Origin: a virus
Taxonomy: Duplodnaviria; Caudoviricetes
Strand: one strand, 5' to 3'
IMG/VR virus record: IMGVR_UViG_3300030613_000008
Span: 1 to 64,000 of that record
DNA length: 64,000 nt
Part shown: in pieces, positions 725 through 58,868 of the stretch
How positions within the stretch are numbered: position 1 is the stretch's first letter
How the letters are laid out: the number at the start of each line of letters is the position of its first letter
The notes under the pieces: generated by a model
Told to the model about the DNA's origin: nothing
What the model saw: the letters and a program-made list of their open reading frames with translations, nothing else
Database searches by the model: none
Translations under genes and position numbers: made by a program

Positions 725-1288
725 ATGGGACACGGAAGTGACCATTGTTCAGAGCACGATCATCCGCCACCGTGCCCGCATTGTCTGGAGGACGACGTGA
801 AATCAGCCGACGCCGAGATCTCCTCCCTCACCGCTCGCCTAGCCGCAAGCGAGGCGGCGCTGGCGGGGGAACGGGAGAGGGCGGAACAACTGGAAGCAGA
901 CCGAAACGAGTGGAAGGGAGTTGCGGATGGTCGGCTGATAGAGATCGTCGATTTGCATTCCATCAACGCCGCCGCCTTGGCCCGCGCGGAGAAGGCGGAA
1001 TATACAGCAGCGCAGGTGCCACAACTGCGGACGCGCATACAGCAACTCGCCGCCGCTCGCGAGGATGCGGTGCGAGAGTTCGCGGAGTGGCTTGCGGCGC
1101 AGCATCCCGTGTGCCAATTCGTGCGCCTAAATAGAGACGGCGTGCCGGACGACTCGTCCATCGTGGACGTCGCCAACATCTACCTCGCGGTAAAGGAGCC
1201 GACCGGTCAACTACCGTCCGCGGAAGCGGGCGGCTTGGAAGGAGTAGCGATGCCAACGCGAAACGGACAGGGGAAAGAGGGAGACTAG
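725..1288 (+). CDS. Hypothetical coiled-coil phage protein; C-terminus extended by the inserted element
   Basis: SD AGGAGG, N-terminal Cys/His cluster, heptad-like region. The last ~27 codons lie inside the omegaRNA. Confidence 0.7.
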   Translation: MGHGSDHCSEHDHPPPCPHCLEDDVKSADAEISSLTARLAASEAALAGERERAEQLEADRNEWKGVADGRLIEIVDLHSINAAALARAEKAEYTAAQVPQLRTRIQQLAAAREDAVREFAEWLAAQHPVCQFVRLNRDGVPDDSSIVDVANIYLAVKEPTGQLPSAEAGGLEGVAMPTRNGQGKEGD

Positions 1289-1455
1289 AGTGGCCAAGGT
1301 AGGGACCAGCAAGGTAACTGCCGTTCGAAGGCAACTGAGCCGACTTCCCGTGGCAGGGAGGACGACGTCGGAGGTGCTCCCCAAGCCCCCGACCTCTCTG
1401 TCGGCCAGTCTCGATGGGGTGCAAACACGGGTTAAAGGTTCCCGGCTTACAGCGA
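1186..1455 (+). ncRNA. omegaRNA (HEARO-like): 5' guide ~1186-1205, scaffold from 1206
   Basis: GTCAACTAC plus hairpin CCGTCCGC-GGAA-GCGGGCGG then CTTG; GACTAG; hairpin GTCGGAGG-TGCTCCCCAAG-CCCCCGAC; CGATGGGG able to pair with CCCCA. Lies directly upstream of the PLMP ORF. Ends are approximate. Confidence 0.8.
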
Positions 1456-2454
1456 TAAAAACCTACGTTCTGGTGGTTGGTTCAGATGGGGTGCCGTTGA
1501 TGCCAACGACGCCGAGTAGAGCGCGGAGATGGGTGAAGTATGGAGAGGCAACGCCGTTCTTCGTGCGTGGGATCTTTTGCGTGCGGTTGAACCGGGAGCC
1601 GTCGGCACAGGTCAAGCAGGAGATCGCAGTGGGTATCGATCCTGGTTCGAAGAAGGAAGGATTCACGGTGAAGTCGGAAGCCCACACGTTCCTGAACATC
1701 CAAGCCGATGCGGTGACGTGGGTGAAGGATGCCGTAGAAATCAAGCGAAACATGCGCAGGGCAAGACGATTCAGAAAAACTCCGTGCAGAGAGAATCGGA
1801 AGAACCGTGCGCGTGGTTGCCTTCCTCCATCAACGAAGGCACGCTGGCAGTGGAAGTTGAGGATCGTCGCTCAACTGGCGAAGGCATTTCCGATAACGAA
1901 TTTCGTTGTCGAAGACATCAAGGCGCTCACGAAGGGGCAGCGTCGATGGGATATAAGTTTCTCTCCACTAGAAGTGGGCAAATCGTGGTTTTACGAGGAA
2001 CTTACTCTGTTTGGCAGTGTGCATTTGAAGCAAGGATGGGAGACGGCCGAGATGCGCACAGCGGCCGGTTTGAAGAAGTCCAAGTCGAAGATGTCGAATG
2101 TGTTCGAGGCGCACTGCGTGGATAGTTGGGTGCTGGCAAATTGGTACGTTGGTGGCCACATCACGCCTGATAACACGGCGATGTTGTGTATCTCCCCAAT
2201 CCGACTTCACAGACGACAACTGCATGTGCTTCAGCCTGCGATTGGCGGAGTGCGGAAACCATACGGCAGTACACGTAGTCTTGGATTCAAGCGTGGCTCC
2301 CTGGTATCGCATCCGAAGTACGGAAAGTCTTACGTTGGAGGAACAAGAAACGGTCGTATTAGTCTGCATGAACCCAAGAGCGGCAAGCGACTGACGAGAG
2401 ATATAAAACCACAGGATTGCAGATTCGTGACCTACAACACATGGAGGCCGACCG
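1206..2454 (+). mobile_element. IS200/IS605-derived OMEGA cassette (omegaRNA + isrB), no tnpA
   Basis: Begins GTCAACTACC, is visibly more AT-rich than its flanks, and is bounded by GCCGACCG at 1198-1205 and 2447-2454. Removing it restores a clean gene junction. Confidence 0.85.
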
Positions 2455-2462
2455 ATGGGTGA
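1455..2462 (+). CDS. isrB: IsrB RNA-guided nickase (PLMP + split RuvC, no HNH); start codon uncertain
   Basis: DGVPLMPTTPSRARR (PLMP), GIDPGSK (RuvC-I), MRRARRFRK (bridge helix/RRXRR), FVVEDI (RuvC-II), AHCVDS (RuvC-III). No HNH or CxxC between RuvC-II and III. About 335 aa. Confidence 0.88.
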   Translation: MKTYVLVVGSDGVPLMPTTPSRARRWVKYGEATPFFVRGIFCVRLNREPSAQVKQEIAVGIDPGSKKEGFTVKSEAHTFLNIQADAVTWVKDAVEIKRNMRRARRFRKTPCRENRKNRARGCLPPSTKARWQWKLRIVAQLAKAFPITNFVVEDIKALTKGQRRWDISFSPLEVGKSWFYEELTLFGSVHLKQGWETAEMRTAAGLKKSKSKMSNVFEAHCVDSWVLANWYVGGHITPDNTAMLCISPIRLHRRQLHVLQPAIGGVRKPYGSTRSLGFKRGSLVSHPKYGKSYVGGTRNGRISLHEPKSGKRLTRDIKPQDCRFVTYNTWRPTDG

Positions 2463-3791: not shown

Positions 3792-4414
3792 AACCGAAAT
3801 CCACCGACGATCTCATCAAACGGTACGAGCAACTGGTCGACGCAGCCGTTGCCGAGTCGCGCCTCGAATCACACCTGGACCGTTTCGCCGTCGCCTACGG
3901 GCTCGTGGCTGTCGCCTTCTGCCTCGTCGCGCTCGCGGTGCTGCTTGGGGGATGCAGCCCGGTGGCACGGTCGGTAACTCCGATCACGCCGATCTCCTCC
4001 TCCCACTCACAACTCACGGCCACGGAATACGACCTCGCGGAGACCGAGTTCTCCGGTGACCTCGCATCGATGCCGGCGGAGCTCCAAGCCGCGGCCGACG
4101 CGGACTGCCAGCGGCTGCTCGAACGCCGAGACGCGGCGAGCGCCGTGGTGCTCGGGCTGGTCGGGCTGACCGGAGCGGGCGGGCTCGCGACGATCATCCC
4201 AAAGGACGCCGAGGGAGCCGAGCGCAAGGGGTGGGACATCGGGTTGGGCGCGACGACGCTCGCGGCGGCGACGACGGCGACCATTCTGGGAGCGATGGTA
4301 AGAAATTGGAGTGCAGAGTACGAGCGCCGCTGCGTGAGCGAGACGCCCGCCGTGGTAGAGCACCCGGCCAGTGACGAGGTTGACCATTCTCCCGACCCCG
4401 ACGGCGGGGTGTGA
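3788..4414 (+). CDS. Membrane protein / putative lipoprotein
   Basis: Hydrophobic stretch ending LLGGC, plus two Gly/Ala-rich hydrophobic helices. Confidence 0.6.
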   Translation: MKPKSTDDLIKRYEQLVDAAVAESRLESHLDRFAVAYGLVAVAFCLVALAVLLGGCSPVARSVTPITPISSSHSQLTATEYDLAETEFSGDLASMPAELQAAADADCQRLLERRDAASAVVLGLVGLTGAGGLATIIPKDAEGAERKGWDIGLGATTLAAATTATILGAMVRNWSAEYERRCVSETPAVVEHPASDEVDHSPDPDGGV

Positions 4415-4652: not shown

Positions 4653-5543
4653 ATGAAGACTACAACGACGATTCTGGCGGTTCTGCTTTGGGGGTGCTCG
4701 GCGAGCCCGCAGACGGCGTTTATCCCGGACGGTGGGGATAGCGACGGGGACACGGACGCGGACTCTGGCGAGGATGCCAGCACGGACGTCGACAGCGACG
4801 GGGACGCGGGTCCGGACGCCTCAACCGACACCGACACGGACACCGACACGGACACCGACACGGACTCTGATTCGGATACGGGAACCGAGGACACCGAGAC
4901 GGAGACGACCGATACGGAAACCGAAACGGTCGATACCGAGACGGACACGGGGACGGAAGATACGGATACCGGCCCTGATACCGACACGGGAATCGACCCG
5001 CCTGATACGGATACCGAGGTCGACACCGAGACAGAGGATACCGACACGGGGAGCGACACCGACACGGGACCGGACACCGACACCGGCCCCGACGTCAACG
5101 CCTGTGGCTTCGTCGAGATGCCCGCCGGCACGGTGTGCGACCCCGACACGGGGCAGGTTTGGGAGGCCACTGTGAGCCCTTCCAGCGAGGGCAATTGGGC
5201 GTGGGGCTTCTGGTACTACTGCGAGCCGTTGACGCTCGGGGGGTTCGACGATTGGCGGATGCCGACTGAAGATGAGATGGCGGCGCTGTGGCGACTCGAC
5301 GACCCTATCATCCTGCCTGAGTTTCCGTTCGAGTGCGACTGGCCCGCGTGGGCCGGGACGGATTGTGGGCACCGCCTGTGGTCGGATTATGGGTACGCGG
5401 AGTTGGGGTATAATCCGATGTTTGCGGCTGATACGTTTAGATACTATTGCTCATACCTAGGTGCGACGGAAGTATCAGACCCTCTATGTCAACACGCTGA
5501 GACGCTTGGCGGTTCGGCATTCACCCGTTGCGTGCGCGGTTGA
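4653..5543 (+). CDS. Lipoprotein with Asp/Thr low-complexity linker and DUF1566 (Lcl C-terminal-like) domain
   Basis: Signal MKTTTTILAVLLWGC; (DT)n tract; VCDPDTGQVWE...YCEPLTLGGFDDWRMPTEDEM...RCVRG. Confidence 0.8.
   Translation: MKTTTTILAVLLWGCSASPQTAFIPDGGDSDGDTDADSGEDASTDVDSDGDAGPDASTDTDTDTDTDTDTDSDSDTGTEDTETETTDTETETVDTETDTGTEDTDTGPDTDTGIDPPDTDTEVDTETEDTDTGSDTDTGPDTDTGPDVNACGFVEMPAGTVCDPDTGQVWEATVSPSSEGNWAWGFWYYCEPLTLGGFDDWRMPTEDEMAALWRLDDPIILPEFPFECDWPAWAGTDCGHRLWSDYGYAELGYNPMFAADTFRYYCSYLGATEVSDPLCQHAETLGGSAFTRCVRG
4740..5095 (+). repeat. GACACC/GACACG hexamer low-complexity coding repeat
   Basis: Encodes the DTDTDT tract. Confidence 0.85.
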
Positions 5544-56196: not shown

Positions 56197-56466
56197 ATGC
56201 CAAGATACTACACCCCCGAATACGCCCGAGTGAAAGTCCGGGCAGCCACGCACGGCATGACATTCGCGCAACTCGCGGGGAAGTGCGGGGTGTCGCGGCA
56301 AGCCTTGGAGATGAGTCTCAAGGCAGGGCGTCCCGCGCTGGCCGGGCTGGAACGTCTCGCCGGGGCGCTGACCATGGCCCGAGATGACGTGCTCGCGCCG
56401 CTCAAGAATTCGGAACTCATCGCGGCGGCCCTCTGGTACGCCGGGTTGACGGGGGGGCAGCGTTGA
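56197..56466 (+). CDS. XRE/Cro-like HTH regulator
   Basis: GMTFAQLAGKCGVSRQAL...LERLAGAL. Confidence 0.8.
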   Translation: MPRYYTPEYARVKVRAATHGMTFAQLAGKCGVSRQALEMSLKAGRPALAGLERLAGALTMARDDVLAPLKNSELIAAALWYAGLTGGQR

Positions 56467-57278
56467 CGACCTTGGACCACCTGTCGGCGTCGTCCTACGG
56501 GCAGTTCTTCAAGTGCCCGGCACAGTGGGATTACGTACACAACCAGGGCATCAAGATACCGCCGGGCATCGCGGCACACGTCGGTAGCGGGTTGCACGGC
56601 GCGGCAGAGTTGAACTTCCGGCAGAAGATTGTCACGGGGGTGGACCTCCCGGCGTCCGACCTTGCCGACGCGGCCGTCACCAAGTACCGCGAGCGAGTCG
56701 AGAAGGACGGCGTGCTCTGTACGCGCGAGGACAGGCCCGCCCTTGGCCGTCTGCTATCCGAGGGGGTAGACAGAGCGGTGGAGTTCTCGCGCGTGCTGGC
56801 GGCCACGGTGGCCCCGTTGTACCGGCCCGCCTCGGTAGAGCAGTTCGTCAAGTACCAGGGGTCGGAGCTGCCGGTCCCGTGGGTGGGGTATATCGACCTC
56901 ACGACGGCGGACAACAAACTGGTCGACTGGAAGACGGCGGGCAAGCGGTGGCCGAAGGGGCGGGAGCACAAGGAAAATCAGGCGACGATTTATCGCAAGT
57001 TGTTCGTCGCCGACCGTGGCATCGAACCGGCCGAGACGGTGTTCGAGGTGTTCTTCGATTCGAAGGACGGGGCGAAGCGAGACGACCGGACCACGGTGCG
57101 GGACGACGCGGATTGGGTGGCGTTGCAGCACGGCGCGGGAATCATGCTGCGGATGATAGACCACGGCGACTTCCCACCGTGCCCGCCGGGGTCGTGGAAT
57201 TGCTCGCCCACGTGGTGCGGGCTCTTTTGGATTTGTCGTCATGTGTCCGAGCGGGTTCGGAGATTGCCGAACGTGTGA
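56463..57278 (+). CDS. PD-(D/E)XK (RecB-family) nuclease
   Basis: HLSASS...CP, GSGLH, SVE, GYIDL, VDWKT, QATIY, C-terminal Cys cluster. Confidence 0.88.
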   Translation: MTTLDHLSASSYGQFFKCPAQWDYVHNQGIKIPPGIAAHVGSGLHGAAELNFRQKIVTGVDLPASDLADAAVTKYRERVEKDGVLCTREDRPALGRLLSEGVDRAVEFSRVLAATVAPLYRPASVEQFVKYQGSELPVPWVGYIDLTTADNKLVDWKTAGKRWPKGREHKENQATIYRKLFVADRGIEPAETVFEVFFDSKDGAKRDDRTTVRDDADWVALQHGAGIMLRMIDHGDFPPCPPGSWNCSPTWCGLFWICRHVSERVRRLPNV

Positions 57279-57593: not shown

Positions 57594-58868
57594 ATGGCAG
57601 GCAATCAGGAATGGCAGGGAACCGTCAAGGTCGTGGACCCGCAAGCGCTCGCGCCGGTCGCGCCGATTCAGGCGCTCGCACAGTCGGCGGCAGTCGACGC
57701 GGCGCGTGTGTTGTCGGAGACGCAGGCCATGGTGCTCATGGCGAGGTCCAACCCGCGCAACGAATTCGCGGTGCTCAAGAAAATCAAGGCGATGTGCTCG
57801 CGGTTGCGGCTCGCCGATAAGGCGCTCTACTCGTTCCCGCGCAGCAACAAGACCGTTACAGGCCCGAGCATCGATCTCATGGAGGCCATCGCCACGGCAT
57901 ACGGCAACCTGGACCACGGGTGGCGGATGCTCGAAGAGGATGGCGAGTCCGTGCGCGTGGAAACCTACGCCTGGGACATGGAGACAAACTCGCGAACTCG
58001 TATCGAGTTCTGGATGCGCCGCGTCCGCGACACGAAGCAGGGGGAGAAGGAACTCCATGACGAGCGCGACAAGTACGAAATCGTAGCGAACTACGCCAGC
58101 CGTCGCAAGCGCGCGTGCCTGGAGAAAATCATCCCCGTCGACATCGTTGAGCAGGCTGTCGAGTGGTGCATGAAGACCATCGAGAAGGGCGATGACGAGA
58201 TGCCGCTGGTGGACCGCATCCGGGGCATGGTGTTGCAGTTCTCGGAACTCGGTGTCAGCCAGGTCATGTTGGAGAAGCGGCTCGGGCACACGGTGGACAC
58301 GACCATCGCGAAGGAACTGCCCGAGCTTCGCGCCATCGCCAACGGGTTGAAGGGCGGACGCGGCCGGGAGGAGTTCTTTGACCTCGCGCTGGCTGGGCAG
58401 GCTCCCGCGACGAAGGCCCCGGCACCGACCTCGAAGCCCGAACCCGCGCCGGCCGAACCGTCCAAGGCTGCGGACCCGCCGGCGCGGGGCTCGACTCAGA
58501 ACGGCGCGGAACCAGTATCTACGCGGACCAATGGCGGCGCGGAACCCGCCCCGGTCCACGTCGTGACGAAGCCCGAGAAGTCCGAGCCCGCCGCCGAAGC
58601 GACACCCCGGCTGTTCGCCACGTTGCTCGGCCGGTTGCACAACACCTACAAGATGACAGACGAGCAAATCCGCGCGGCGCTCGGTGGACCCATCGAAGGC
58701 GCTCCCGTCGAGGAGTTGGAGCGAGTCATCACCGAGGCCGAACTGCGAAACAAGCGGACGCGCAAGGGCAAGGCCCCGCCGCCGCTGAATCTCGTGCCAC
58801 AGGGCGAGCCCGAGACGGGCGGACCTCCCGATATGGAGATGCCGCCGGACGACAACGAAGAGTTCTAG
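57594..58868 (+). CDS. Putative single-strand annealing/recombination protein
   Basis: Close to the nuclease gene; ARSNPRNE...LYSFPR...GPSI...YGNL...AWDMETN core, disordered acidic tail. Confidence 0.6.
   Translation: MAGNQEWQGTVKVVDPQALAPVAPIQALAQSAAVDAARVLSETQAMVLMARSNPRNEFAVLKKIKAMCSRLRLADKALYSFPRSNKTVTGPSIDLMEAIATAYGNLDHGWRMLEEDGESVRVETYAWDMETNSRTRIEFWMRRVRDTKQGEKELHDERDKYEIVANYASRRKRACLEKIIPVDIVEQAVEWCMKTIEKGDDEMPLVDRIRGMVLQFSELGVSQVMLEKRLGHTVDTTIAKELPELRAIANGLKGGRGREEFFDLALAGQAPATKAPAPTSKPEPAPAEPSKAADPPARGSTQNGAEPVSTRTNGGAEPAPVHVVTKPEKSEPAAEATPRLFATLLGRLHNTYKMTDEQIRAALGGPIEGAPVEELERVITEAELRNKRTRKGKAPPPLNLVPQGEPETGGPPDMEMPPDDNEEF

Follow-up and report, generated by a model that had tools for sequence, protein, structure and literature searches.

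A transposase-less IsrB-omegaRNA cassette at a stop/start junction of a soil phage: a candidate for RNA-guided homing

The closest described counterpart of the locus reported here is DtIsrB of Desulfovirgula thermocuniculi (8DMB), an HNH-less protein with PLMP, RuvC and TI (target-adjacent motif (TAM)-interacting) domains, whose gene lies directly 3' of a long structured omegaRNA with the guide at its 5' end, and which uses an NTG-type TAM on the 3' side of the target (PMC9581776). In DtIsrB, R323 reads the third base of the TAM (G) and Q326 the fourth (A), the Q326R mutant also accepts NTGG, and NTG or NTGG is recognised by some IsrBs; the same 2022 work includes an IsrB from a viral metagenome, K2IsrB (PMC9581776). 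Here, an IsrB-omegaRNA cassette is described at positions 1206-2447 of the first 64 kb (64,000 nucleotides, hereafter the window) of IMGVR_UViG_3300030613_000008, a 93.5-kb IMG/VR phage record with a completeness rating of 98% that was assembled from a soil metagenome. The cassette is an HNH-less IsrB OMEGA nickase with its own guide RNA, predicted to be active, and represents a reduced form of a known mobile element. It looks like a working module derived from an ISC1 element, which may nick, and home into, uninterrupted junctions in co-resident DNA; confidence and doubt in this reading are about evenly matched.

The cassette is like DtIsrB in its domain composition, in the position of the omegaRNA and guide relative to the gene and in its predicted 3' NTG-type TAM, with R310 and R313 aligning with the TAM readers R323 and Q326. 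It differs in sharing only ~30-35% identity with DtIsrB and in having a scaffold that is not found by Rfam HEARO, and its arginine at the position of Q326 predicts a TAM of ATGG or ATGR, not NTGA. ISC1 elements have a GTCA terminus, an N|ATGA target and subterminal hairpins at both ends for the Y1 transposase that moves them, are multi-copy, and make no target duplication (Kapitonov, Makarova, Koonin 2016, PMC4810608). With one of these, ISC1-1_MA of Microcystis aeruginosa, the window cassette shares the 5' terminus GTCA, a site of the N|ATGA type (N|ATGG in the window) and a non-autonomous organisation in which only the Cas9-like protein is encoded. However, in contrast to ISC1 elements, it has no right hairpin, is flanked by a 7-8-bp direct repeat and is present as a single copy in a phage without a transposase.

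As a nuclease gene between conserved phage genes, the locus is also similar to the free-standing homing endonuclease genes of T-even phages (SegB, SegF, Mob). For these, and for the 'non-restorative homing' of TnpB (PMC13565253), the target is likewise the allele without the element, and the expected result is copy-in to, or exclusion of, the co-infecting genome. Unlike SegB, SegF and Mob, the window cassette would recognise its target through a flank-derived guide RNA rather than a protein, and is predicted to make a nick rather than a double-strand break. That OMEGA elements undergo 'non-restorative homing' into co-infecting phages or plasmids was proposed from plasmid data in a 2026 review (PMC13565253). 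With both this proposal and the N|ATGA target already in print, the principle itself is not novel.

The IsrB protein and its guide RNA

The cassette consists of a ~255-nt noncoding structured omegaRNA followed by the HNH-less IsrB, and sits precisely where one small phage gene stops and the next one starts. The features referred to below are:

1186-1205, + strand: predicted omegaRNA guide, 20 nt, directly 5' of the conserved scaffold start
1206-1465, + strand: omegaRNA scaffold, with a conservation edge at 1206 and compensatory pairs
1461-2447, + strand: conserved coding region of IsrB, comprising PLMP, split RuvC, bridge helix and TAM-interacting domain (PF14239 and 8DMB matches)
2448-2454, + strand: 7-nt direct repeat of 1199-1205, read from the sequence, encoding the IsrB codons P-T
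2455-2458, + strand: predicted TAM, ATGG, which is also the start codon of the downstream gene (natural empty sites, reader residues, covariation)
725-1205, + strand: native part of the upstream phage gene (open reading frame (ORF) list; C-terminal module in common with genes ending at the empty junction)
2455-2664, + strand: downstream gene of 69 aa, zinc-ribbon-like (ORF list; weak Zn_ribbon_3 match under the Pfam cut-off)
56463-57278, + strand: phage PD-(D/E)XK exonuclease of recombination type (PF12705, E 7e-14; phrog_69 exonuclease, E 2.3e-19)

A preliminary description of the window, made from the sequence without database searches, had identified the protein as an IsrB that retains its RuvC motifs, and database comparison bears this out. 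The protein matches Pfam RRXRR (PF14239; E 2.6e-32) with no match to an HNH family, and matches DtIsrB (8DMB) with E 1.8e-34 as a single sequence and E 3e-58 as a profile, over residues 2-324. The RuvC residues D60, E151, H218 and D221 (numbered from 1461) are aligned to the DtIsrB motifs and are invariant across 20 relatives. By amino-acid identity the nearest relatives are loci L003 (83%) and L054 (~80%), and the ratio of nonsynonymous to synonymous substitution rates (dN/dS) of the window IsrB versus these two is 0.07-0.10. GenBank phages included no close relative of the window, and their single match to the IsrB gene lies in a 485-kb uncultured phage, at 68% nucleotide identity.

When 27-34 related phage loci are aligned with the window, the similarity sets in exactly at 1206 (GTCAAC...), the position at which the start of the scaffold had been placed beforehand, and the 20-24 nt preceding it have a different sequence in every relative. 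RNAalifold predicted 34 pairs from 27 sequences, 27 of them with compensatory double changes, and the 5' hairpin at 1214-1230 inside the omegaRNA doubles as the left transposon-end hairpin. The structure is visible only by covariation, since a single-sequence fold of 1186-1470 is no better than shuffles (z 0.36). A scan with the Rfam HEARO/omegaRNA models, suggested in the preliminary description, gave no match, either at the gathering score or with E allowed up to 10; this counts little, as the model may not cover the IsrB clade of the window. Despite this miss, the comparative evidence identifies the sequence from 1206 onward as a predicted omegaRNA scaffold, with a guide that is drawn from the 5' flank as previously suggested. 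This guide (1186-1205) spans the last codons of the upstream gene and the Shine-Dalgarno (SD) sequence AAGGAG of the downstream gene.

Natural empty sites and the ATGG motif

Removal of the cassette had been predicted to restore a 24-nt joint, and this joint was found in nature. It has one exact occurrence in IMG/VR, in the complete 205-kb phage IMGVR_UViG_3300036761_001580, and a looser pattern detected the same junction in seven JGI metagenome contigs (L042-L045, L048, L050 and L053). All these natural junction sites are unoccupied. At these sites the upstream gene ends in ...KEPTDG* and the next gene begins at the ATG, exactly as had been reconstructed from the occupied allele, and the genes ending at the empty junction in L001 and L042-L050 have in common with the upstream gene of the window a C-terminal module, ..AAAR.DAVREFAEWL.. 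then ..KEPT.

All natural empty sites agree with the guide over the 14 bases nearest the TAM, and the bases following the protospacer are ATGG in five contigs and ATGT in three. Over the whole guide, 17/20 bases match. Guide and TAM were found together only at uninterrupted junctions in other phages. In the window phage the guide is followed by GTCA, and its own allele would be protected because the scaffold begins with GTCA and not with NTG. The ATGT variant, seen at the empty sites of L048, L050 and L053 (3/8), changes the fourth base of the TAM and alters both overlapping genes (DG* to DV*, and MG.. to MC..), and is a possible TAM-escape allele.

The prediction that ATGG, the start codon of the downstream gene, is the TAM is well supported, because the natural empty sites, the arginine at the DtIsrB Q326 position and the covariation of this residue with the flank all point to it, in agreement with the preliminary description. 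The reader residues were aligned by profile, with the numbering of 8DMB (chain number equal to residue plus 150) verified on four named residues. Among 27 scorable loci, those flanked by ATGG have R or K at the Q326 position in six cases and Q or another residue in two, and those flanked by ATGA have R or K in one case and Q or another residue in 18 (one-sided Fisher ~6e-4, uncorrected for relatedness). On the tree, residue and TAM base switch jointly in four of the five informative sister pairs. Two related phages (L026 and L027) carry IsrB insertions 20 bp apart before the same gene, each directly 5' of ATGG, and each phage displays the uninterrupted site of the other's insertion.

The junction itself is a conserved motif of ~35-40 nt which lies at varying gene boundaries and is present in two copies within 170 bp in the 205-kb phage; in the genome of the window phage it was found at the occupied site only. 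The motif, encoding ..ARFLARKEPTDG*, an SD and the ATG, stands at different gene boundaries in L001 (3347-3540), L043, L048/L053 and L049/L052. As a 24-bp direct repeat it stands on both sides of a 58-aa zinc-ribbon ORF, and elsewhere it is fused to other gene families, as in L049 and L052, where it is fused to another gene. It looks like a cassette boundary or recombination hotspot of this phage group. A scan of a genome collection gave one bacterial chance match, which is unrelated, as are L047 and L046/L051 from the metagenome scan. The search for relatives through the upstream gene returned only matches of 35% identity with a different gene end, and that through the downstream gene returned two giant phages with mosaic paralogue arrays.

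Insert ends and lost transposon features

Similarity to more than 30 phage relatives spans exactly 1206-2447, and similarity to the nearest relatives L054 and L003 stops exactly after the conserved W-R codons TGGAGG (2442-2447). At the position of 2448-2454 relatives carry a hairpin or other sequence. Since 2448-2454 directly repeats 1199-1205 (8 nt if G2447/G1198 is counted), deletion of 1206-2454 and deletion of 1199-2447 give the same joint. The insert had originally been delimited as 1206-2454; the joint which this implies is correct, but the right end is not, homology ending at 2447 and the remainder being the repeat.

The IsrB frame, which extends from GTG 1290 as far as the stop at 2460-2462, takes its final D-G-stop from the flank, reusing the first bases of the downstream gene. 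The downstream gene stays translatable because GGAGG at the end of isrB (2443-2447), together with the repeated 7-nt spacer, forms an SD at the native spacing. In the occupied allele the frame of the upstream gene continues to 1288 and gains 27 foreign residues (ORF list).

The length of the repeat, 7-8 bp, coincides with the published distance between the IsrB nick site and the TAM, the nick site lying 8-11 nt upstream of the TAM. The proposal that the repeat is the footprint of a copy-in at the IsrB nick stays speculative, because other hairpin-less loci have no such repeat: considered as a general mark of hairpin-less cassettes, a repeat of the guide end before the TAM is clean only in the window and is missing in L003, L007, L013 and L026. 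It is equally possible that the repeat arose when the hairpin was lost through recombination with a nearby copy of the junction motif. A clean GGAG microhomology deletion was also considered as its origin and fits inexactly, as the junction retains one extra G.

In 19 of 31 relatives, the W-R codons lead directly into a two-tier hairpin that resembles the 5' hairpin of the omegaRNA, and 8-12 nt separate this hairpin from ATGA or ATGG. The window has no right-end hairpin, although its sister L054 has one, and merely 7 nt separate the conserved end of IsrB from ATGG. The absence of tnpA, initially noted for the window, holds for the whole 93.5-kb record, in which neither a Y1 (PF01797) nor a serine (PF00239) transposase was found, and which contains one copy of IsrB. 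With the right-end hairpin lost and no transposase encoded by the phage, peel-and-paste movement is impossible, and ordinary IS200/IS605 transposition by the phage's own means is excluded. Hairpin loss on the phage IsrB tree requires ~6 changes most parsimoniously, with at least 3 forced by well-supported branches. In the clade of L013, L026 and L027, all of which are hairpin-less, dN/dS is 0.12-0.15 over a dS of 0.6-1.0, indicating that hairpin-less cassettes remain under selection for protein function.

In a related locus, L010, a near-consensus sigma-70 promoter (TTGACA, 17 nt, TATAAT) lies at ~3990-4040, immediately past the IsrB stop and in the place that the end hairpin takes in other loci. 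The window phage also carries a second OMEGA nuclease, a TnpB at 84262-84459 (L058; PF07282, E 2.1e-26; open frame of 536 aa), ~20 kb past the end of the window, in a genome with no transposase. At the opposite end, positions 1-330 of the window contain four tandem copies of a ~63-nt unit, read as ..RGADTKASFPKLSTVGGWLYC.., which open the first open frame, and this frame runs off the window edge. An ORF at 4653-5543 has a signal-like N-terminus, a long acidic run rich in Thr and Asp (DTDTDT.., TETETT..) and then a Cys/Trp-rich C-terminal domain; its acidic run gave short, chance-like matches to unrelated phages.

Homing and its alternatives

In the homing reading, an ISC1-type IS200/IS605 element would have landed at N|ATGG, in an overlapping stop/start junction within a variable region of the soil phage, and would have kept its left end (the 5' hairpin of the omegaRNA) and lost its right-end hairpin. 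The ribonucleoprotein (RNP) would then bind co-resident DNA that carries the uninterrupted junction, with its guide match and ATGG, and nick it, and phage replication would then convert this nick to a break. Where the broken DNA belongs to a close relative, repair off the occupied allele would copy the cassette in. In a distant relative sharing only the short junction motif, the break would mainly damage a competitor. The PD-(D/E)XK exonuclease of the phage may aid the recombinational repair. The preliminary description had pointed to both nuclease and annealing genes at 56.4-58.9 kb as possible helpers, of which the exonuclease was recovered as such (PF12705) but the annealing protein was not confirmed. 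The adjoining 424-aa protein (57594-58868) belongs to phrog_3657, of unknown function, and to no Pfam family, the sole lead being a weak Atlas score of 0.76 to clusters with 20% Rad52_Rad22 members; it is possibly a single-strand annealing protein.

Several observations weigh against homing. No second occupied copy, at this or any other site, was found in IMG/VR, the JGI metagenomes or a set of 5.8 billion proteins, and of 5298 relatives with E 1e-50 or better, the IsrBs closest to that of the window reach 81-83% identity and carry different guides. A near-isogenic empty allele was likewise not found. Contigs from the source soil sample (two runs, probably the source) show the occupied form only, with none joining across the element; those of the second soil run break at ~1258-1274 and ~2263-2501 and are uninformative on the empty allele. 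The phages with empty sites are distant mosaic relatives of the window phage, with common blocks of 26-190 nt, and the homology flanking their sites (~25-45 nt to the left, ~12 nt to the right) makes a poor homing substrate. In addition, these sites differ from the guide at three positions, 15-17 when counted from the TAM. Recombination is triggered less strongly by a nick than by a double-strand break. As regards expression, a consensus scan found no promoter-like site upstream of the omegaRNA, and IsrB has no ATG at the canonical place, where relatives have ATG TTT GTT CC.. and the window ACC TAC GTT CT.., leaving GTG at 1473, 1419 or 1290 as candidate starts. The frame is open for a further 171 nt upstream, into the omegaRNA (window 1290-1475), and since gene callers assign ~390-413 aa to many members of the clade, an N-terminal extension of IsrB that overlaps the RNA may be translated.

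Because of the missing second copy and near-isogenic empty allele, the contigs with only the occupied form, the guide mismatches, the start codon and the promoter, a recent stranded relic is a serious rival, even if not a probable one. This would be a single ISC1 insertion, made in trans by the Y1 transposase of the host or of a co-resident element, whose right end was then lost by a deletion or recombination that left the 7-8-bp repeat, and which would be functionless and intact only for being recent. Such a relic sits uneasily with the recurrence of hairpin-less IsrBs with intact genes in several phage lineages, and with the strong purifying selection on a wholly hairpin-less clade over a dS of 0.6-1.0. 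The low dN/dS of the window IsrB versus its nearest relatives and the retention of all omegaRNA pairs argue in the same direction. The relic would, on the other hand, explain a single copy with no other occupied site and no polymorphism, as well as the missing right hairpin and the 27 foreign residues added to the upstream gene, and the match between TAM reader and flank is equally expected from the original transposition.

It is also conceivable, although unlikely, that the cassette serves as a weapon against competitors, the RNP nicking related phages that have the junction motif and cutting their yield in mixed infection without the cassette being copied. Protein homing endonucleases, with their marker exclusion and interference competition, provide the model. 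In favour of this, the target is a conserved 35-40-nt junction that at least 8 related phage contigs carry at different gene boundaries and between otherwise unrelated flanks, and the homology available for repair at these targets is very short; the ATGT at three empty sites, which changes both overlapping genes, could be an escape. However, the target phages may infect other hosts than the window phage does, repair of a single nick may do no harm, and interference of this kind overlaps with homing and does not exclude it. Regulation of neighbouring genes by an RNP that binds without cutting, analogous to the control of genes by nuclease-dead TnpB derivatives, is highly improbable: the guide does cover the ribosome-binding site region, and a candidate site in the phage's own genome (2447-2458) offers a partial second match with the correct TAM, ATGG, in front of the downstream gene, but this match is limited to an 8-nt seed and all RuvC catalytic residues are intact, unlike those of known domesticated repressors.

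The homing reading can be extended from this locus to the hairpin-less phage IsrB cassettes as a whole, which would then form a lineage without transposase-driven movement, made up of RNA-guided homing nickases that act as a natural gene drive between co-infecting phages, with the 7-8-bp repeat as the footprint of copy-in and ATGT as an escape from TAM recognition. This wider proposal is doubtful at present. The copying of OMEGA elements into co-infecting phages has so far been proposed only in theory, and the locus bears on the role of OMEGA nucleases in elements without a transposase. The covariation between the residue at the Q326 position and the fourth base of the TAM also offers a usable rule by which the TAM of an IsrB can be predicted from its sequence. 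The locus described here is a specified test case, with a guide, a TAM and matching reader, natural targets that include a possible escape variant, and a cassette that is unable to move in the ordinary way, and it makes the homing question directly testable.

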